DNA of 64,000 nt, from the UHGV virus genome UHGV-1451962. One strand, 5' to 3'. Within the stretch, counting starts at the first letter, position 1, and each line of letters starts with the position of its first letter. This stretch comes from a virus. A program made the translations under genes and the position numbers. Of this stretch, positions 2,738 through 34,170 are shown piece by piece. The notes beneath the pieces were generated by a model. The model saw only the letters and a list, made by a program, of their open reading frames with translations, was not told where the DNA came from and did no database searches.

Positions 2738-3126
2738 TTACCCCAAATAGTAACGTTAAAATTAGTCAGCTAGGGAATACCTATTCTTTAGTTGGCACTG
2801 TAGATAAAACTGATATTCCCGTAGAATATCAAGGGCTATTTGGGGATATAGCAACAGAAGATACTTTAAATAAGTATGTGCTTGTTAGATTAAATAATAT
2901 TATTCCTAAAAATGGTGCTACTATTATTCAAAAGAATGAAGCTTTAAAATATTATTATAATAAAGGTGATGTTAATATCACTGAAGTTGGTGGCATTTAT
3001 ACCAAGACTAAGGAATATGATGGAACTGATTCTGATTATGCTTTGTTAATTAAGATTGGTTCTACTGCGGAAGTTACTATTAATGATACTAAATATATTA
3101 TTGATGGTTCTAAATTAACTAATTAA
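2725..3126 (+). CDS. -1-frame ORF continuing from the major tail gene; probable frameshift-generated C-terminal extension (track lists only 2878..3126 from a GTG)
   Basis: Frame 1 is open from 2725 (after the frame-1 stop at 2722-2724) to the stop at 3124-3126. It therefore overlaps the last codons of the frame-2 tail gene (..ACT TTT TAA at 2729-2737). A T5 run lies at 2731-2735. No SD precedes the GTG at 2878, unlike nearly every other gene here. Confidence 0.4.
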   Translation, partial: GDFLITPNSNVKISQLGNTYSLVGTVDKTDIPVEYQGLFGDIATEDTLNKYVLVRLNNIIPKNGATIIQKNEALKYYYNKGDVNITEVGGIYTKTKEYDGTDSDYALLIKIGSTAEVTINDTKYIIDGSKLTN

Positions 3127-3131
3127 TAAAA

Positions 3132-3166
3132 ATAGGGAAGAGTTTTACTCTTCCCTATTTTTTGTT
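3132..3166 (+). terminator. intrinsic terminator after the major-tail unit
   Basis: ATAGGGAAGAG (3132-3142) pairs with CTCTTCCCTAT (3148-3158) around a 5-nt loop, followed by TTTTTTGTTTT. Confidence 0.8.
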
Positions 3167-3179
3167 TTAAGGAGAAAAT

Positions 3180-4586
3180 ATGAGTAGTGATTTTGTTTTT
3201 GAATATGATGGAACTAGTTATCCTAATATTCATAGTAAACCTGAACATTATATAGGAGGAACTTTAATTCCTTATGCTCAAACAACAAATAAAATGGCAG
3301 CTATCAAAACAAGATACTTAAATATGATGAAAGCGCAACTCGCCAGCCAACAAACAGATGCTAAAAAGAAAGCTTTTATAGAAGGTATGGAATTAGCAAA
3401 ATTTGAAAAAATGGAAAAACAAATAGAAAATAAAATTGTTGAAGAATATAATAAAGCTGCGAGCAAATTAGGAGGAAATATTGGTGGATATAATATGGGA
3501 GTTGATGGATATGTTGCAGCTTTAAAATCAGGAGATAAAGATGGAGCAATAAAATCATTAGCTCAAATAATAGCTGTTTTTCACCAAAATAAAGATGCTG
3601 TTGCTTTATATGAAATGTTAAAAGATAATCCTCAACAAATTTATTCTGATATTTCTATAAACGAATTAATTAATGTTCAAGCTTTTATGAAAGTTATTGA
3701 AGCTGCTATGAATGGAGAAAATTATCGGAATACTCTAAATTCAATTTTAACTAAACCTTCAGAAGCTTTAGCAGCTTTAATAGGAACATATGCTGAAGCA
3801 AAAAGTGATACAGAAGTAAAAGATTTATTACTTGGTACTCAATCACAAAATATTAGAGTAAGTTTTAGTGGAGAATTTAAAGAAATTCAATCTAAATCCG
3901 CGGATATTAGTTTAGGAAATTCATATTTTTCTTATAATATGGGTGGTTCACAAGGCAGTCAAGGTATTGAGCTTTATGACACTTTTGATGTAGAAACTTT
4001 TGCTACTGTAAAGACTTATAGAACCGCGGGAGGTTTGTCTTTAACAAGTTATTCTGGAAAAAATTCTTTCTTAATTCCAGCTTTACATCAATTGTATGGT
4101 GGTGGAAACTCAATTGATTATCAAATATATAATACTTTAGCTTTTAGTGCAGGGCAAGAATCAGGAGCATTGGATACTAACTTTAGAATTATTCGGCAGG
4201 ATTTAATTGCTAAATTTGCGGAAAACTTTTTAATTGGTTTTAATACGGCTGAAGCACAAAGAGTATTAGTATATAATTTTAGAGCATATCCAGTATTAAC
4301 TATATTAGCTGATATAGTTAATGATGCTAAAAATGCGGTTAGAGAAGGAAATTTATATGGTTCTTTAAGTAGTGGTGATTTATTTAGTATTTCTTTGACT
4401 AAAAGTGCTGTTGATAATAGTTGGGTTGGTCAAAAAGATATAACAAATAAAGCAAATAAAGCTGTTCGTGTAAAAAGAGCTTATAATCAAATTAATAGTA
4501 TTGCAATGCAAGGTCATATTAGTGGTAGATATGTTAGTTCTAATTTAAGAAAATATTTAACAGCGGCGAATGGAATACCTATTTAA
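3180..4586 (+). CDS. hypothetical structural protein (468 aa)
   Basis: Long ORF with SD AAGGAGAAAATA-ATG, lying between the tail-tube-like gene and the chaperone-like gene. No motif recognised. Confidence 0.55.
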   Translation: MSSDFVFEYDGTSYPNIHSKPEHYIGGTLIPYAQTTNKMAAIKTRYLNMMKAQLASQQTDAKKKAFIEGMELAKFEKMEKQIENKIVEEYNKAASKLGGNIGGYNMGVDGYVAALKSGDKDGAIKSLAQIIAVFHQNKDAVALYEMLKDNPQQIYSDISINELINVQAFMKVIEAAMNGENYRNTLNSILTKPSEALAALIGTYAEAKSDTEVKDLLLGTQSQNIRVSFSGEFKEIQSKSADISLGNSYFSYNMGGSQGSQGIELYDTFDVETFATVKTYRTAGGLSLTSYSGKNSFLIPALHQLYGGGNSIDYQIYNTLAFSAGQESGALDTNFRIIRQDLIAKFAENFLIGFNTAEAQRVLVYNFRAYPVLTILADIVNDAKNAVREGNLYGSLSSGDLFSISLTKSAVDNSWVGQKDITNKANKAVRVKRAYNQINSIAMQGHISGRYVSSNLRKYLTAANGIPI

Positions 4587-27402: not shown

Positions 27403-28051
27403 ATTTTAATTCTATGGCTTTAATTTCCTTATAATTTTTAGCAGTATAAATTTGTGTTTTATATTGTTGCATTTTTTTATAATAAGGATAAACAAAATCA
27501 GAAATAGCTAAAGCTAAAGCAGTCAAATTTTCAACTGTCCAAGATGTACATTCTTCTTGGCGAGCATGCCATTCTAATCTAGGATTCTCTGCTCCAGCCT
27601 GAACTGCCATAGAATATTGATTCATATTTAGGCTAATTTCTGATTGATCTTCTTCTGTAACTCCATATTGCTTTCCATCAATCCAAGTCAAAGGATTATT
27701 AATGAGGAAATTAGCGAAAGCTTTTTTATTTTCTTCTTGTTTCATTTTTTGATATTCTTCTAAAGAATAGTAATATGTTAATTCATTTTTTTCATTATCA
27801 TATTTATAAAAATTAGGTTCATAATCTTCTGGAATATTACCATCAAAAGATAAGATTCTTACTGCATCAATAGAACCTGTCATATCTGAATTAGCCAAAA
27901 TGAAATGGCTATTGCAATCTGAGCCTATTACTCCTGTAGCTTCACCTTCCGAGCAAGCAATGACAATACTTGGGTTGGATTGTAATTTGATGTAGCGGAT
28001 TTCCGCAAGGATATCGACTACTATATTTTCTCTATTGATTAATAAATACAT
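27392..28051 (-). CDS. hypothetical protein; C-terminus resembles DUF4376-type phage (fibre-associated) domains
   Basis: 219 aa. Its ATG overlaps the RT stop (TAATG). The C-terminal ..TWIDGKQYGVTEEDQSEISLNMNQYS..WTVENLTALALAISDFVYPYYKKMQQYKTQIYTAKNYKEIKAIEL pattern recalls DUF4376 (from memory). Confidence 0.4.
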   Translation of the reverse strand: MYLLINRENIVVDILAEIRYIKLQSNPSIVIACSEGEATGVIGSDCNSHFILANSDMTGSIDAVRILSFDGNIPEDYEPNFYKYDNEKNELTYYYSLEEYQKMKQEENKKAFANFLINNPLTWIDGKQYGVTEEDQSEISLNMNQYSMAVQAGAENPRLEWHARQEECTSWTVENLTALALAISDFVYPYYKKMQQYKTQIYTAKNYKEIKAIELKYEN

Positions 28052-29307
28052 TATAATATTTCAACTCCTTTAAATAATGAATGGAAATAATTATCAAGAT
28101 TTTGTATAATATAAAAAGTAGTACCTTTATTTATATGTTCTCTAAAACCTCGATATGATTCTTGAATTTCTATATCAGTTATTTTACCTTGTAGCCAAAG
28201 TTGGTGCATTTTTCTCATTTTTCTATATTGTCGCTTTATTTTCTTTTTAAATGGAGTTTGAATAATTTTATTCGTATTAGTTAAATAAAAATCCCATTTT
28301 AAATATTTAAATGGATTATGTTTATCCGAACGTCTTTTATGAGGATAATTATTTTTATCTAGTTTTATTGGACTAATTTTAATTATTTTAGTTTTTCTTT
28401 TGTTACATTTTAAATGTATTTTATTTAATTCATTTTCAATTTTATTAAGACATTCTTTTAAATAATCTTTGTCATTATGCAAAATATAAATATCGTCCAT
28501 ATAACGTCCATAATATTTTAAATGCAAATGCTCTTTTGCATAATGGTCAATTCCATTTAATGCCAATAAAGCTAATAATTGAGATGCTTGACTACCTAAA
28601 CCTAAACTTTTATGATTAAATTCATAATAAGTACAATTTTTATAAAATTGTTTAGGATAAATTATCTTATATTTTTGTTTTTTGATGATATAGTATTGTT
28701 TATTAGGAATAGGAACTGTATCTTTTGTGACTGAAAAACAAAAGGTATCAATAATATAATCAATTAATTTAAATACTCGTTTTTCTTTAATATAATGTTT
28801 TGCCATTTGCTTTAAAGAATTATGGTCTATTGAATCAAAAAATTTTTGAATATCAATTCTTAAACCATAAAAAGATTTTCCTAAACCATATGTTCTGTGC
28901 GCTGCTTGTAAATGTTTACGCACTTCTAGCAAAGCAAAATCAATTCCTTTTCCTTTTAATGTAGCACAATTATCATAAATAAATTTTGGAGTTAGTTCTG
29001 GAATAAGAACTTGCGAACATAATGTATTTTGTGCCAATCTGTCATAAATATGGCACGCTCTTATATCTCTGGGTTTGCCCCGCTCAATTATACTAAAACT
29101 GTTAAAAACTAATTGTTCATAACTGTCATTTTCTAATTGTTCTTTAAGCGTTAAGATGTTATTTAATCTATTTTCTTCAAAATTAACTGTACTATCTTTC
29201 CATCTTACGTTTCGGCAAATAGAATAAGAAGAATCATAAAAAGCGTCAAAATTACAAAAACGCTGGAAAAGATTTTCTTCTATAAAAAATTCTCCTTTTT
29301 TTATCAT
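28051..29307 (-). CDS. DGR-type reverse transcriptase
   Basis: 418 aa with the YMDD catalytic box (..YGRYMDDIYILHND..) and the SLGLGSQASQLL segment matching the G-x-x-x-S-Q signature of DGR RTs. RT motifs 1-2 are present (..ERGKPRDIRACHIYDRLAQ..). It lies 282 nt downstream of a TR that matches a VR. Confidence 0.9.
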   Translation of the reverse strand: MIKKGEFFIEENLFQRFCNFDAFYDSSYSICRNVRWKDSTVNFEENRLNNILTLKEQLENDSYEQLVFNSFSIIERGKPRDIRACHIYDRLAQNTLCSQVLIPELTPKFIYDNCATLKGKGIDFALLEVRKHLQAAHRTYGLGKSFYGLRIDIQKFFDSIDHNSLKQMAKHYIKEKRVFKLIDYIIDTFCFSVTKDTVPIPNKQYYIIKKQKYKIIYPKQFYKNCTYYEFNHKSLGLGSQASQLLALLALNGIDHYAKEHLHLKYYGRYMDDIYILHNDKDYLKECLNKIENELNKIHLKCNKRKTKIIKISPIKLDKNNYPHKRRSDKHNPFKYLKWDFYLTNTNKIIQTPFKKKIKRQYRKMRKMHQLWLQGKITDIEIQESYRGFREHINKGTTFYIIQNLDNYFHSLFKGVEIL

Positions 29308-29589
29308 GCGGTGCTAGATTGTGTGCTCTGACACGCACATCCGCAATCTTAATTAATTATCTGTATAGATAAAAGGTTAAATTCTCCTTAAATGAAAGCT
29401 ATCTATTATAATCTAAGTCTTTTATTTAATATTTCCTCTCCTTCTTGGTTTTAAAACCAATGCGTCCAGAAAATACCAAAATAGATGAGTTATAACATAG
29501 GTTATAATTTTCTGGGGTAACACTTAGTCGTCTCAGTCGATGTCGCCTGCGGCTCCATCACCAGAGACAGTTAGAGTTCTCATCTAATC
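29308..29589 (-). ncRNA. TR-RT spacer; probable structured part of the DGR RNA
   Basis: No ORF. It contains a GC-rich segment next to the TR with GTCTC(29530-34)/GAGAC(29564-68) and GATG/CATC pairings. It also contains nested stems CCAGAAAAT(29466-74)/ATTTTCTGG(29507-15) and TTATAAC(29490-96)/GTTATAA(29501-07), a 16-nt perfect palindrome at 29445-60, and a GC-rich element (29308-29345) abutting the RT ATG. Confidence 0.5.
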
Positions 29590-29693
29590 GGGCGCGAGGT
29601 AATTGTTGTTGTTGTAGTTGGTATTGTTCGCATTACCATCAGAGTTGACATTGCACACATTGTTCGTGTTGTTCGAGTTGTAGTAGCGAGACC
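29590..29693 (-). repeat. DGR template repeat (TR)
   Basis: 104-nt match to 30388..30491 with 83 identities. On the coding (-) strand it reads as about 15 AAY codons (..TAC AAC TCG AAC AAC ACG AAC AAT GTG TGC AAT GTC AAC..). It is non-coding and lies between the Avd-like ORF and the RT. Confidence 0.9.
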
Positions 29694-29726: not shown

Positions 29727-30191
29727 TTATTTGTATCGCTGAGAATAAATTAGATTATCTCTATTTATTCTATCAAGAAGATTTTGTTTTAATTTGTAAG
29801 TAAGTTTAGCAACATATTTGAAAGATTTATTTTTCTTTTTATTATTTAACCCATATTCATAAATACATAAATCTAATTGCCTTAAAATTGAATCACAATA
29901 TCTTATTGATTTATTAAAGTAATCTGCTCTTTCAACTAAAGTTTTTTTATTTTTTAGATTGATTAAACTAGCAGAGAAAGCATATCCATGTGCGTTTTTG
30001 GCACATTTTAAAATATCTGCACCAAAAGCTGAATAATAGTATGGATTACCAAGAATACCTGGTTTAATATGAGAACCATCATCTAATTCTTGATATGGAC
30101 GAACTAAAATTAATACTTGATGGACTAACTTTCTTGCATCATTTAAATAATCATTTTTAGATTGATGCCTATCTTTTTTTCTTACTGACAA
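29727..30191 (-). CDS. avd: Avd-like DGR accessory protein (by position, size and basic helical composition)
   Basis: 154-aa K/R-rich ORF with a TTG start 7 nt after AAAGGAGG. It occupies the canonical slot between target gene and TR. No sequence motif verified. Confidence 0.5.
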   Translation of the reverse strand: MSVRKKDRHQSKNDYLNDARKLVHQVLILVRPYQELDDGSHIKPGILGNPYYYSAFGADILKCAKNAHGYAFSASLINLKNKKTLVERADYFNKSIRYCDSILRQLDLCIYEYGLNNKKKNKSFKYVAKLTYKLKQNLLDRINRDNLIYSQRYK

Positions 30192-30225: not shown

Positions 30226-30254
30226 ATTATACCAGAAAATTTTTAAAAAGTCAA
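30226..30254 (-). promoter_or_regulatory. consensus promoter for avd-TR-RT
   Basis: On the - strand: TTGACT (30254-30249), a 17-nt spacer ending in TGG, then TATAAT (30231-30226), about 35 nt upstream of the avd start. Confidence 0.65.
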
Positions 30255-30315
30255 AGAAAAAAAATTTTTAGAAAAAATTTTTTTCCCAGAAAAGGTGAAA
30301 GCATTTTTATACTAT

Positions 30316-30341
30316 GGCATTGGCCCTTTTGGGCCAATGCC
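30316..30341. promoter_or_regulatory. perfect GC-rich hairpin/cruciform just 3' of the VR
   Basis: GGCATTGGCCC (30316-30326), TTTT loop, GGGCCAATGCC (30331-30341). It lies 29 nt beyond the target stop codon. No U-tract follows on either strand. Confidence 0.6.
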
Positions 30342-30369
30342 AATATAACCTTACTGTATAACTTTACAG

Positions 30370-32133
30370 TTATCCAATAACGAAAGCGGGCGCGAGGTAA
30401 CGGTAGTTGGCGTAGTAGGTAAAGTCCGCACCACCATCAGAGTCGACACGGCACACATAGCCCGTGTAGTCCGAGTAGTAGTTGCGAGACCGCTCCCAAT
30501 ACCATTTGGAATCTCCTGAACTGTTACCATTAGCATCTTGAATGTTTTTTATACGGGAGCTGTCACTTGTGTAATAATCATAAGCAGCATTATATCCTTT
30601 AGTACATTCTGCATTGGAAACAGTAGAATTAGCAGTGCTGATTGGAGAATAACTATCTAATCCCATTTCTCTCTCAGAAGGAATCCAAACAGTTTCGTTA
30701 TTATAACTAACATTAGCACTTCTATTATCATCCCAATTATCGCAAGTACCTTTAGATACTGTTTTTATAGATGCTTTAGCAGCACAAGCATTATAAAAAT
30801 TTTGACAATAACTTCTAGCATTAGAACCAATCCATTGTGCGCTATTATCACCAAAAGTAGTCATATTCGGCAAGAGATAAACACTATGAAAAGCTAAAGT
30901 TTTATCTCCATCTTTGTCATAGCCAATACAACGCATTGTAACAGCATTTGCTCCTAAAACATTAGTAGATAAATTCATCTTTTTAGTTTTACCAACTAAA
31001 GCTTGACGTTCTGAAGCAGAAGAATTGTTAAGCCAAGACTTTAAGCCAGCCCACCAAGAAGCATCTCCCGCAGCACTCTCATTTCCCCAAGTCCAATATG
31101 TAGCAGTAGCAGTAATTTTTTTATTCGCGGGAGTTGTATAATTGGTACTGGCTGCTATTGATACAGTAATAGTAGCAGTTCCCGCGGTTGTACCATTGCC
31201 TTTAATGGTAATTGTTTTACCGCTTACTGTTGCTGAAGCCACATTAGAATTAGTAGAAGTTACAGAAATTGTACCAGTAGAATTAGTGGTCACAGTAACT
31301 TTTACACCAGTAGAATAATTAGATGCGTCAATAGAAACAGTAGAAGTGCTTAGACTTAATGTTCCTGTTGCTTTTTGAATAGACCAATCAACATTTTTCG
31401 CGGTTGTTGTCTTATCAGGCCATCTGTAATTATTTTTAGGAGTAAAAGTAGCTGTATATTTTCCTGCATTAATTCCCGATGTAGTTCCTCCAATAGTCAT
31501 GTAACTTGTATTATAATTTGACCAATTTGGACTTTGCGAATTGGCGTTATAAGTTAAAGTTCCAGTTTGAGAAGGAATAGGAACTGTTTTTCTTTCTACT
31601 GTTACAGAAAAAGTAGTAGTTTTAGTAATACTATTTTCTGTATAAGAAACAGTAATTGTTTGAGTACCAACTGTATTTAAAACAGAAGGTGAAGTTGTCC
31701 AACCAGAAACAGTAGCGGTTTTACCATCAGAATAAGTGGCAGTAACAGACATTCCGGCAGATTCAAATGTCTCGCCATATTCATAAATTGTCTTAGTTGG
31801 TTTTGTGCTTGTGATGCTGGTTAGTGCATGGATAACAGTAACTGCTTGCTCGGCGGTACAAGTAACTCCTCCTTCAGAGTAAGTAATAGTAACTTTAGTT
31901 ACTCCATCAGTTAAAGGAGAAGGTGTTACAGTATATCCAGTTACCGCAGTAGAAGAAACAACAATATTATCAATGGCATAATTGGCAGTTATAACCATTC
32001 CTGTTGTTTCAAATTCTTGTCCAGCAACGTAAGATGTACGGTTTGGTGGAGTAGTAACTTCAATAGAGTGGAGTGCTATTGAGCTTCCGCCACCTTTTCC
32101 GCCTTGTTCAGTTAAAATGCATTTAACAGGCAA
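30370..32133 (-). CDS. DGR target protein: Ig-like repeats plus a C-terminal lectin-fold-like variable domain (putative receptor-binding or fibre protein)
   Basis: The track ORF 30370..32154 begins inside its own SD (TTG ATA AGG AGG). The more likely start is the TTG at 32133, 9 nt after GGAGG. There are repeated ~90-aa segments (..VTGYTVTPSPLTDGVTKVTITYSEGGVTCTAEQAVTV.. / ..VSGWTTSPSVLNTVGTQTITVSYTENSITKTTTFSVTV..). The C-terminus ..WYWERSRNYYSDYTGYVCRVDSDGGADFTYYANYRYLAPAFVIG is the VR. Confidence 0.85.
   Translation of the reverse strand: MPVKCILTEQGGKGGGSSIALHSIEVTTPPNRTSYVAGQEFETTGMVITANYAIDNIVVSSTAVTGYTVTPSPLTDGVTKVTITYSEGGVTCTAEQAVTVIHALTSITSTKPTKTIYEYGETFESAGMSVTATYSDGKTATVSGWTTSPSVLNTVGTQTITVSYTENSITKTTTFSVTVERKTVPIPSQTGTLTYNANSQSPNWSNYNTSYMTIGGTTSGINAGKYTATFTPKNNYRWPDKTTTAKNVDWSIQKATGTLSLSTSTVSIDASNYSTGVKVTVTTNSTGTISVTSTNSNVASATVSGKTITIKGNGTTAGTATITVSIAASTNYTTPANKKITATATYWTWGNESAAGDASWWAGLKSWLNNSSASERQALVGKTKKMNLSTNVLGANAVTMRCIGYDKDGDKTLAFHSVYLLPNMTTFGDNSAQWIGSNARSYCQNFYNACAAKASIKTVSKGTCDNWDDNRSANVSYNNETVWIPSEREMGLDSYSPISTANSTVSNAECTKGYNAAYDYYTSDSSRIKNIQDANGNSSGDSKWYWERSRNYYSDYTGYVCRVDSDGGADFTYYANYRYLAPAFVIG
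30388..30491 (-). repeat. DGR variable repeat (VR), encoding the last ~35 codons of the target protein
   Basis: Pairs with the TR. There are 21 differences; 20 are at positions where the TR coding strand has A, and 14 of 15 TR AAY codons differ. The shared GC-rich 3' end CCTCGCGCCCG is IMH-like. Confidence 0.9.
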
Positions 32134-32199
32134 GGTATAAGACCTCCTTATCAAGAATTATTATTAGAGTTTTAAAACTCCATCATTATTTATAGAATA

Positions 32200-32239: not shown

Positions 32240-32287
32240 AAAAATGTAAAATTGGGAAAAGGATATAAAAATATCCTTTTCCCAATA
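32240..32287 (-). terminator. perfect 16-bp-stem hairpin that acts as a terminator only for leftward transcription
   Basis: ATTGGGAAAAGGATAT (32252-32267), AAAA loop, ATATCCTTTTCCCAAT (32272-32287). Read on the - strand it is followed by TTTACATTTTTT. Read on the + strand it is followed by ATAAAAATAT, with no U-tract. Confidence 0.5.
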
Positions 32288-32424: not shown

Positions 32425-34170
32425 ATGGCTGTTCAATGTGTACTTGTCGGAAAAGGCAAGGATGATGTATTTACTGCTGTTTATGGCGAAACTACATTTG
32501 ATAAAGTGTTAAAAGCTTATAATGAAAATAAAGTAGTTCAAGTGATTTATCAAAATCGTATTTATTATTTAGATAATACTACTGTTGTAGATTCTCCTGA
32601 AGCATTTTCTTTTATTTCTGCTTTTAGTAATCAAAATGATGAAGCTGGTGAAATAAAGCATTATGTAATAAGTTTAATGACAGGAGATAGTTGGTCTGGG
32701 CCTTTCTTACAGAAATCTACTCCAGCAACTCACGCGAATACTCATAGTAAAAATGGTGATGATCCACTTACCCCCGCAGATATTGGAGCTATGGAATTAT
32801 CAGAAAATGTTCTTAAACAATCAAATGAAGATATTACTTCTCAAGTAGCGCAAGCTTTATTTGGGGATTTAGTTCCTTTTAGCGGTGGAACCATGACTGG
32901 TTTGTTAAATGTTCTTACTCCTGTTAGAGATAGTAATGCTACTACTAAAAAGTATGTAGATGATGCTTTGAGTGAGAAAATTGGAATGGATGGCATTGGC
33001 GATTTGCATGTATGGAAGAAGACTATAATAACAAAACAGGAGATTCCAGCAAGTTTTACTTTAGGTGATGTACACTCTGGTTCGTTTCGTTTTGTTAGTG
33101 GTGAAACTAATGTGTTGTTAGTAGGTACTCCTAAAGTTAATGAGAGTGGTGTCGTTACCTTAACAAACTCTGCGCAGTATAATTTTAATTATAATTCTTC
33201 ATCTCCTAGTATATCTGATCTGCGAGGACAGTATTGCATGTTTACCATGATAGCCGATCAATTTTCTAGTTTTACTGCCAATAAAGTTTTTTATATACCC
33301 ACTGATGCAAACTATATTTCTTTATCAAGTTCTAAAAATATTACTAAATATCAAGATGTTAATGGTACACCTAAAATTCCTGCCGAAGTAACTACTACCT
33401 ATCCCGCATCTACTAATCCCAATGCGTATCAAGAGGGGAGCGATGCAAAACCAGCAGGATATGTACTTGGTAATGTGATAACAGGTTCATTTTGTATTGG
33501 TAATACAACAGCACCTACGAGAGCTGCTTATTATGTCGCATCTGATATTTCTGTATCTGATAATGGTGTTTTATCTATTTCAACACAAACAAATATAACT
33601 ATTGGTGGTAATTTTTTTGTATCTAGCCGTGATTTAATTGCTGGTAAATTTATACAAATTTATAATAAAGGGTCTATGTCTTCTGTTTTATCTGAACCAT
33701 TCACAACAGTACCAGGCCCAATTATTTATATTCCGAATGATGTAAACTTAACGTCTGGCGGTGATGGAAATTTAAATTTATATATTGATCGCTACCAACC
33801 TATTACTGGCTACGCTGCTATCCCCGCAGGCACCACTATTGAATATCTGGGGAAGTTGGGAGATAAGACTAGGGTAATAATTGGCTCGTATATTGGGACA
33901 GGGGTCTGCGGGGCAGAGAATCCGACCAAAATAAAAACGAGTTTTTTACCGAAACTTGTAGCAATAAATGGAGTAGGAAATACCGGCAGTACGGGCATTA
34001 TTCTGTTTTTTCGAGATATGAACTATGCGTTCTCAGAAATCGGCTCAAGTACCAACTTTAACTTTACTAATATAACCTGGTTATCAGACGGAGTACATTG
34101 GTATTCTAGCAAAGTCCTTATGCAGGGGAATAAGCAGGGGGCAATTTATAAATACATTGTTATCGGTTAA
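32425..34170 (+). CDS. tail fibre protein (581 aa)
   Basis: SD GAAAGGAGTTTTTAA-ATG. It contains ..THANTHSKNGDDPLTPADIGA.. and ..FSGGTMTGLLNVLTPVRDSNATTKKYVDDAL.., motifs typical of phage tail fibres (from memory). The C-terminal ~125 aa have a distinct, GC-richer composition. Confidence 0.7.
   Translation: MAVQCVLVGKGKDDVFTAVYGETTFDKVLKAYNENKVVQVIYQNRIYYLDNTTVVDSPEAFSFISAFSNQNDEAGEIKHYVISLMTGDSWSGPFLQKSTPATHANTHSKNGDDPLTPADIGAMELSENVLKQSNEDITSQVAQALFGDLVPFSGGTMTGLLNVLTPVRDSNATTKKYVDDALSEKIGMDGIGDLHVWKKTIITKQEIPASFTLGDVHSGSFRFVSGETNVLLVGTPKVNESGVVTLTNSAQYNFNYNSSSPSISDLRGQYCMFTMIADQFSSFTANKVFYIPTDANYISLSSSKNITKYQDVNGTPKIPAEVTTTYPASTNPNAYQEGSDAKPAGYVLGNVITGSFCIGNTTAPTRAAYYVASDISVSDNGVLSISTQTNITIGGNFFVSSRDLIAGKFIQIYNKGSMSSVLSEPFTTVPGPIIYIPNDVNLTSGGDGNLNLYIDRYQPITGYAAIPAGTTIEYLGKLGDKTRVIIGSYIGTGVCGAENPTKIKTSFLPKLVAINGVGNTGSTGIILFFRDMNYAFSEIGSSTNFNFTNITWLSDGVHWYSSKVLMQGNKQGAIYKYIVIG

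Follow-up and report, generated by a model that had tools for sequence, protein, structure and literature searches.

The window, i.e. the whole 64-kb stretch of DNA that was analysed, has a GC content of ~30% and a GC skew that tracks gene orientation. According to the metagenome sources, it originates from an uncultured human-gut phage; a DNA similarity search against catalogued phages gave no match. The DGR found in it is a standard cassette. All parts of the cassette are encoded on the minus strand, in the order target ORF with VR, hairpin, promoter, accessory ORF, TR and RT:

30370-32154, minus strand: DGR target gene, an ORF of 594 aa with a TTG start (true start uncertain) and the stop codon TAA at 30372-30370
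30384-30491, minus strand: VR, whose 105-nt block 30387-30491 aligns gap-free to TR
30387-30397, minus strand: GC-rich IMH-like block CCTCGCGCCCG at the 3' end of VR, identical in TR
30373-30386, minus strand: tail CTTTCGTTATTGGA specific to VR, at the divergence from TR, coding for the conserved C-terminus ...AFVIG
30315-30342, minus strand: hairpin, characterized by sequence, folds and shuffles, and the same in 10 related contigs
30226-30254, minus strand: near-consensus sigma-70 promoter, TTGACT-17-TATAAT with a TG extension, 11/12 matches
29727-30191, minus strand: accessory ORF of 154 aa, in the position of Avd in BPP-1
29586-29693, minus strand: TR, with the 105-nt repeat 29589-29693 (37 adenines in 105 nt)
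29308-29585, minus strand: spacer from TR to the RT gene, described by sequence only
28051-29307, minus strand: DGR-type reverse transcriptase (RT) of 418 aa, with YMDD and an LGSQASQ (LGxxxSQ) motif

The RT was recognized by its profile matches (RVT_1, 7e-15; PHROG reverse transcriptase, 3e-75) and by the LGxxxSQ motif, which we take to be diagnostic of DGR RTs. The target gene encodes an Ig-like Big_3 domain, with its C-terminal end encoded by VR, and its orthologues had Big_3 and DUF6273 matches. By analogy with the system described in PMC12875486, the structured 3' portion of the DGR RNA is presumably encoded by the spacer that separates TR from the RT gene. For the accessory ORF, no match was found in Pfam, PHROG or PDB. 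Its hhalign comparison with the BPP-1 Avd gave a probability of 0.2%, and a single-sequence structure model was all-helical, at low confidence (pLDDT 46). The ORF belongs to a conserved family (MSVKxKDRH...YCDSIxRQxDLCI...), for which no similarity to Avd was detected by sequence, and it may represent either a divergent or a distinct DGR accessory protein.

Some of the accessory ORFs in related lineages are interrupted by TAG codons in frame (L185, 2067-2561; L189, 1778-2272; L192, 2053-2544; L028, ~3052-3560). The TAG positions correspond to Gln in the orthologues (CIY*YAQ vs CIFQYAQ, LR*LD vs LRQLD), which suggests a TAG-to-Gln recoding in these phages. The accessory ORF of the window had no in-frame TAG, and no tRNA gene was found in the window.

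Located downstream of the hairpin at a distance of 61 nt, the promoter is directed towards the accessory ORF, TR and RT; the same promoter is present in the relative L187. Just upstream of its -35 hexamer there is an A/T-only palindrome (30258-30284, AAAAAAATTTTTAGAAAAAATTTTTTT), the length of which differs between strains through a 17-nt indel. This tract may modulate the expression of the DGR operon, being either UP-element-like or prone to slippage. At the other end of the target gene, a hairpin of 14-16 bp, whose tail on the minus strand is T-rich, was found at 32251-32286. It stands between the target start (32154) and a plus-strand ORF at 32425, which are oriented divergently, and this is an unusual site for a terminator-like structure.

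VR and TR of the window differ at 21 positions, 20 of which are TR adenines. The sole exception is found at ~30483 (position 9 of the 105-nt VR), with T in TR and A in VR; in L178-L180, which are of the same species, both repeats have T at this position. The preliminary description of this DNA had reported a GC-rich block common to both repeats, followed by a divergence in the manner of IMH and IMH*, and both observations held. The block TTACCTCGCGCCCG is identical at 30400-30387 in VR and 29602-29589 in TR. Past it, VR reads CTTTCGTTATTGG (its continuation also written CTTTCGTTATTGGATAA) and TR reads ATTAGATGAGAAC, an IMH*-like tail. Both tails are kept throughout the family, with GCGCCSG followed by CTTTCGTYAT... 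in VR and by ATTAGATR in TR, independently of the presence or absence of a hairpin. A gapped similarity between TR and VR beyond the GC block (GATAACTGTAA vs GAGAACTCTAA) was judged to be due to chance, because it is absent from other lineages.

In L025, VR (1720-1821) and TR (2512-2613) have a common 6-nt deletion compared with the window repeats (30387-30491 and 29589-29693). Both also carry a G-to-A change within the GC block (CCTCGCACCCG), so that the transfer of information from TR to VR reaches into this block. In the more distant L188, the spacer past the VR stop (1824-1995) contains the IMH-like block CCTCGCGCCCG another three times within ~150 nt. These copies could be remnants of aberrant homing, or decoy or initiation sites.

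The hairpin itself, as first noted from the sequence, is an inverted repeat of 11 bp without mismatches, closed by a loop of 4 nt. On the plus strand, its arms are GGCATTGGCCC (30316-30326) and GGGCCAATGCC (30331-30341), separated by the loop TTTT (30327-30330); a T30315:A30342 pair extends the stem to 12 bp. Eight of the 11 stem pairs are G:C. The coding strand is the minus strand here, and the loop on the sense strand is thus AAAA. Since the stop codon of the target ORF occupies 30372-30370, the stem begins 27-28 nt past it, essentially the 29 nt given previously. A prediction of the folding energy, which had been proposed as a check, gave -15.6 kcal/mol for the 28-mer as DNA (z = -5.1). In its 80-nt context, the folds reached -20.4 kcal/mol as DNA and -33.7 kcal/mol as RNA (z ~ -6.7), and none of 200 shuffles folded as well.

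In the window, we counted 14 perfect stems that had 11 bp or more and a loop of 3-8 nt, against an expectation of 0.49. When at least 8 G:C pairs were required in addition, the hairpin stood alone in the 64 kb, and the 200 dinucleotide shuffles yielded none. A chance palindrome or an assembly artefact was refuted by these shuffles and by the recovery of the identical sequence in 10 contigs, independently assembled from different samples; we give this explanation practically no weight. The arm, as an 11-mer, never recurs as a hairpin within the window, and a REP/MITE-like repeated element was rejected on this ground. The exact hairpin sequence had no match in IMG/VR, and an Rfam search gave nothing close to any gathering score. 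Downstream of TR there is no equivalent hairpin, nor does the window contain a second VR or a remote target with a hairpin of its own. The hairpin is real and exceptionally stable, and it is found on the VR side only.

With intrinsic (Rho-independent) terminators, the hairpin shares a stable GC-rich stem-loop at a gene end, soon after the stop codon and before the next promoter. It differs from them by having no U-tract on either strand. Both strands lack a T-rich tail (sense ATAGTATAAAAATG, plus strand ATATAACCTTAC): the sense tail AUAGUAUAAAAAUG has only 3 U in its first 8 nt, the antisense tail is AUAUAACCUUAC, and neither of the terminator scans called the hairpin. The preliminary description had considered it a poor intrinsic terminator for want of a U-tract, and a canonical terminator it is not. 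The long hairpins in the window that were called terminator-like by the scan are framed by A-runs and T-runs (e.g. AAAATGGGTAAGAGC...GCTCTTACCCATTTT). In an AT-rich genome that frames its other terminators in this way, a terminator under selection without a T-run would be odd.

These features bear on the main competing explanation, in which the hairpin would act at the RNA level only, by terminating transcription weakly or with the aid of a factor, by insulating, or by protecting the 3' end. It would then separate the transcription of the late structural gene from that of the accessory-ORF/TR/RT operon and take no part in retrohoming. We consider this explanation possible but rather doubtful. 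Its location between a stop codon and a near-consensus promoter is what one would expect of such an element, the RNA fold of the 80-nt context is strong, and the 12-bp stem resembles those of the other terminators in the window (10-15 bp). Against it stand the missing U-tract, the negative terminator scans and the place of the hairpin: the sole T-less GC-rich hairpin in 64 kb falls at the VR gene. The same coincidence, with a 4-nt loop and next to the only VR-bearing gene, speaks for a role in the DGR, as does the lack of a T-run in a 30%-GC genome that builds A-run/T-run terminators elsewhere. Conversely, the strong promoter 61 nt downstream argues against a DGR role, because this is a natural site for a transcriptional insulator.

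For a comparison within the species, we used the contigs of a 66-member cluster, to which the window RT belongs at an identity of at least 90%. The hairpin region was covered by 10 independently assembled contigs from different samples (L025, L178-L180, L184 and L193-L197). Their RTs were 96-100% identical to that of the window, and the DNA of L025 was 96% identical to the window over 8 kb. All 10 contigs had the identical 28-nt hairpin. In the flanking spacer, three bases were substituted close to the hairpin and another three around the promoter, and the A/T run differed in length by 17 nt. An unchanged hairpin between varying flanks, in 10 independent contigs, is in favor of a DGR role; with ~8 variable sites in ~150 nt of flanking spacer, the absence of changes in 28 nt is not significant. 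The invariance also leaves no covariation signal and makes a compensatory change impossible to score, and this counts against the DGR role.

VR was compared with TR in five contigs, namely the window, L025 and L178-L180. Each contig had a different VR, and in the four relatives 19-23 differences between VR and TR were located at adenines, with none elsewhere. Distinct VRs with adenine-only differences in contigs of one species indicate that the DGR is active in nature. The hairpin lies in an active DGR, within 28 nt of the stop codon of the VR gene and without a counterpart after TR, another argument for its involvement.

Beyond the species there is a gap in identity, with the next RTs being only 58-67% identical. 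We sampled 13 of these lineages from IMG/VR, public metagenomes and Logan assemblies, and folded the 90 nt after the target stop. The spacers of these next relatives (RT at most 67% identical) were non-homologous to that of the window, and most of the lineages had no GC-rich stem-loop after VR. In the major group (~40 loci), only an AT-rich stem was found (TTTCTCAT...ATGAGAAA). No outstanding fold was detected in the 90 nt after the stop in L004, L040 and L188, and in L058, L185 and L186 the sole structure was an AT-rich stem of 8 bp closed by a 7-nt loop. L189, L191 and L192 had small GC hairpins, each with a loop of 4 nt (in the order listed, TCGA; CTAA and TCAA; TTTA). Lineages with a short spacer between target and accessory ORF had no strong hairpin. 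A scan of IMG/VR with a degenerate VR-end pattern gave 120 matches, 35 of them with an in-frame stop within two codons; these 35 were mostly lineages already sampled, plus one new lineage without hairpin (L058-type).

The AT-rich hairpin of the major group, TTTCTCAT-ATAAATA-ATGAGAAA, is conserved and located directly before the ribosome-binding site of the accessory gene (L012, ~4010-4035). A variant of it, CTTTCTCA...TGAGAAAG, was found in the L001/L002 lineage.

In two lineages, the place of the window hairpin is occupied by unrelated hairpins, both of which run into T's. In the L028 group, a 14-15-bp stem precedes AATCTCTTTTT and was called terminator-like by the scan. In L187, an interrupted GC-rich stem with a 3-nt apex, GCA, is followed by TTTTAAT. 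The L187 spacer is collinear with that of the window, both hairpins are at the same position, and they have a GGCCC...GGG apex in common, with differing lower stems and loops. Among the hairpin-bearing lineages of the family, neither the sequence of the hairpin nor its loop is conserved. The occurrence of differing hairpins at a homologous position, in L187 and the L028 group, points to a gene-end element defined by structure only and not to a sequence-specific loop.

These lineages strengthen the case for an element acting solely on RNA. L187 has the same promoter architecture and, at the aligned position, another GC-rich hairpin that runs into T's; the L028-group hairpin at this place was called terminator-like; the window and L187 have different loops; and a strong hairpin is missing where the spacer is short. 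They also raise the explanation that both functions are combined, a terminator-derived stem-loop being used by the DGR as well. Sister lineages with T-run hairpins (L028 group, L187) or a T-less one (window) at the same place would fit it, and the authors of PMC3240598 bring up the idea in their discussion. Neither structure exists in most lineages, and we regard this combination as unlikely.

A further explanation, very unlikely in our opinion, is that a dimeric DNA-binding protein recognizes the palindrome, for instance as an operator of the downstream promoter. The perfect symmetry and the strong promoter that follows after 61 nt would be compatible with it. The palindrome is present in a single copy in 64 kb, lies well upstream of the -35 hexamer, and is missing in L187, which has the same promoter. 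Moreover, with its uninterrupted 12-bp arms, 4-nt spacer and 70% GC, it looks like a typical hairpin and not like an operator.

The major group is informative for the DGR role. It contains one identical TR together with 24 different VRs, each with 13-29 differences at adenine positions. This group diversifies without a GC-rich hairpin, so the latter is not required for mutagenic homing in this DGR family. That most related lineages do the same is an argument against a DGR role of the hairpin, and, to judge from these comparisons, it is not a required recognition element in the family. Conservation in related phages, suggested in the preliminary description as a check, was found within the species (10 contigs) and was missing in most relatives with RTs at most 67% identical. 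Homologous DGRs without a stem-loop at this position had been named there as the finding that would speak against the proposal: the outcome is divided, since most relatives have indeed no GC-rich one and are clearly active, and L187 and the L028 group carry other hairpins there.

The best studied DGR hairpin is that of BPP-1, which is needed for efficient homing and consists of an 8-bp GC stem and a GAAA loop, with a 4-bp spacer (Guo et al. 2011, PMC3240598). In its stem, the structure counts and the sequence does not; in its loop, both size and sequence count, and the complementary CTTT loop is inactive (PMC3240598). Activity falls gradually with longer stems or spacers, a 2-bp insertion in the stem being tolerated (PMC3240598). 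The phage DGRs illustrated in the same paper have stems of 7-10 bp, GRNA loops and spacers of 4-34 bp, and exactly these rules for stem, loop and spacer are applied by MyDGR (PMC6602519). In the catalogue of Wu et al. (2018, PMC5758913), only 34% of DGRs have a GC-rich inverted repeat following IMH, mostly without terminator features. A reconstitution from 2026 found the stem-loop important, and not strictly required (PMC12875486). Lineage-specific loop variants are known from Nanoarchaeota, whose DGR hairpins have GRA tri-loops (Paul et al. 2015, PMC4372165).

Like that of BPP-1, the window hairpin is a perfect GC-rich repeat without T-tract and with a 4-nt, purine-rich loop on the sense strand. 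It is likewise situated 3' of VR and a GC-rich IMH, upstream of the accessory gene, with none after TR, and the order of target, hairpin, accessory ORF, TR and RT is the same. The cassette has the RT motifs, the adenine differences between TR and VR, and a VR at the 3' end of the target ORF, as expected of a DGR. The BPP-1 sequence, which we retrieved (GCGGGGCC-GAAA-GGCCCCGC), folds at -12.2 kcal/mol, compared with -15.6 kcal/mol for the window hairpin, whose stability is thus comparable to or above that of BPP-1. The resemblance of the purine-rich sense loop to GAAA is a point for the DGR role.

There are also differences. The BPP-1 stem has 8 bp and starts inside the stop codon, whereas that of the window has 11-12 bp, outside the range of 7-10 bp, and starts 27-28 nt past it. 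The loop is AAAA instead of GRNA, its first position being A and not G. The spacer is 4 bp in BPP-1; in the window, the stem is located 41-45 nt past the end of TR/VR identity (30384/30387), which exceeds the 4-34 bp, and the value of 27-28 nt is obtained solely when counting from the stop codon. Loop, stem length and spacer outside the published ranges are evidence against the DGR role, and the length of the stem and its distance agree more with terminators than with the BPP-1 rules, in line with a function restricted to RNA. In the window, a strong promoter is located between hairpin and accessory gene, for which the BPP-1 spacer (13 nt to the avd start) is too short. Of the proposal that this is a DGR target cruciform, the DGR context, the VR-side position, the GC-rich stem and the 4-nt loop were borne out; the loop sequence, stem length and distance did not agree.

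Other systems offer partial parallels. The repeats catalogued in PMC5758913 occur in some DGRs, are missing from close relatives and mostly have no terminator features, a patchy pattern also found in this family. The patchy distribution in our lineages agrees with the literature, and patchiness alone does not refute a DGR role. The nanoarchaeal hairpins (PMC4372165) also depart from the GRNA tetraloop, but their loops have 3 nt and their place is inside the target ORF. Group IIC introns, discussed in PMC3240598, are retroelements that use gene-end stem-loops, with stem stability mattering more than sequence; their case is the insertion of an intron, unlike the replacement of a repeat by DGR cDNA.

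Taken together, we tentatively prefer, at somewhat less than an even chance, the reading that the hairpin is a DGR efficiency element, a target-side stem-loop located 3' of VR and the GC-rich IMH-like block. The inverted repeat would form a hairpin, or a cruciform, past VR when the DNA is supercoiled or transiently single-stranded. The stem-loop might keep the target region open, or recruit the cDNA/RT complex or a host nuclease. In this way, it would raise the efficiency with which adenine-mutagenised cDNA is integrated into VR, the site of integration being set otherwise. Such an enhancer would be dispensable and lineage-specific, its AAAA loop being non-canonical, and it may additionally mark the 3' end of the target-gene transcript. 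Both the action at the DNA level and the enhancement of homing are inferred from BPP-1. A more specific scenario, which we consider somewhat unlikely, is a lineage-specific gain of a homing enhancer that was derived from, or still doubles as, a terminator-like stem-loop at the gene end.

It is plausible that the hairpin is an ordinary accessory signal. Plausibly too, and with partial support, it is an off-consensus addition to the known VR-proximal inverted repeats of DGRs, with a function that is not novel in kind. If it were only a structure at a transcript end, the finding would be ordinary. If it enhances homing, the accepted range of DGR hairpins would widen to include AAAA as loop, stems of 12 bp and spacers of >40 nt, and annotation rules such as those of MyDGR would miss it. 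The hairpin and its active relatives without one provide a natural comparison for how a stem-loop aids cDNA integration. Should the gain of an enhancer be true, the collinear, active cassettes of this family, with T-run hairpins (L028 group, L187), a T-less hairpin with a 4-nt loop (window) or none (major group), would be a natural series for the contribution of the stem-loop to retrohoming and for its origin.
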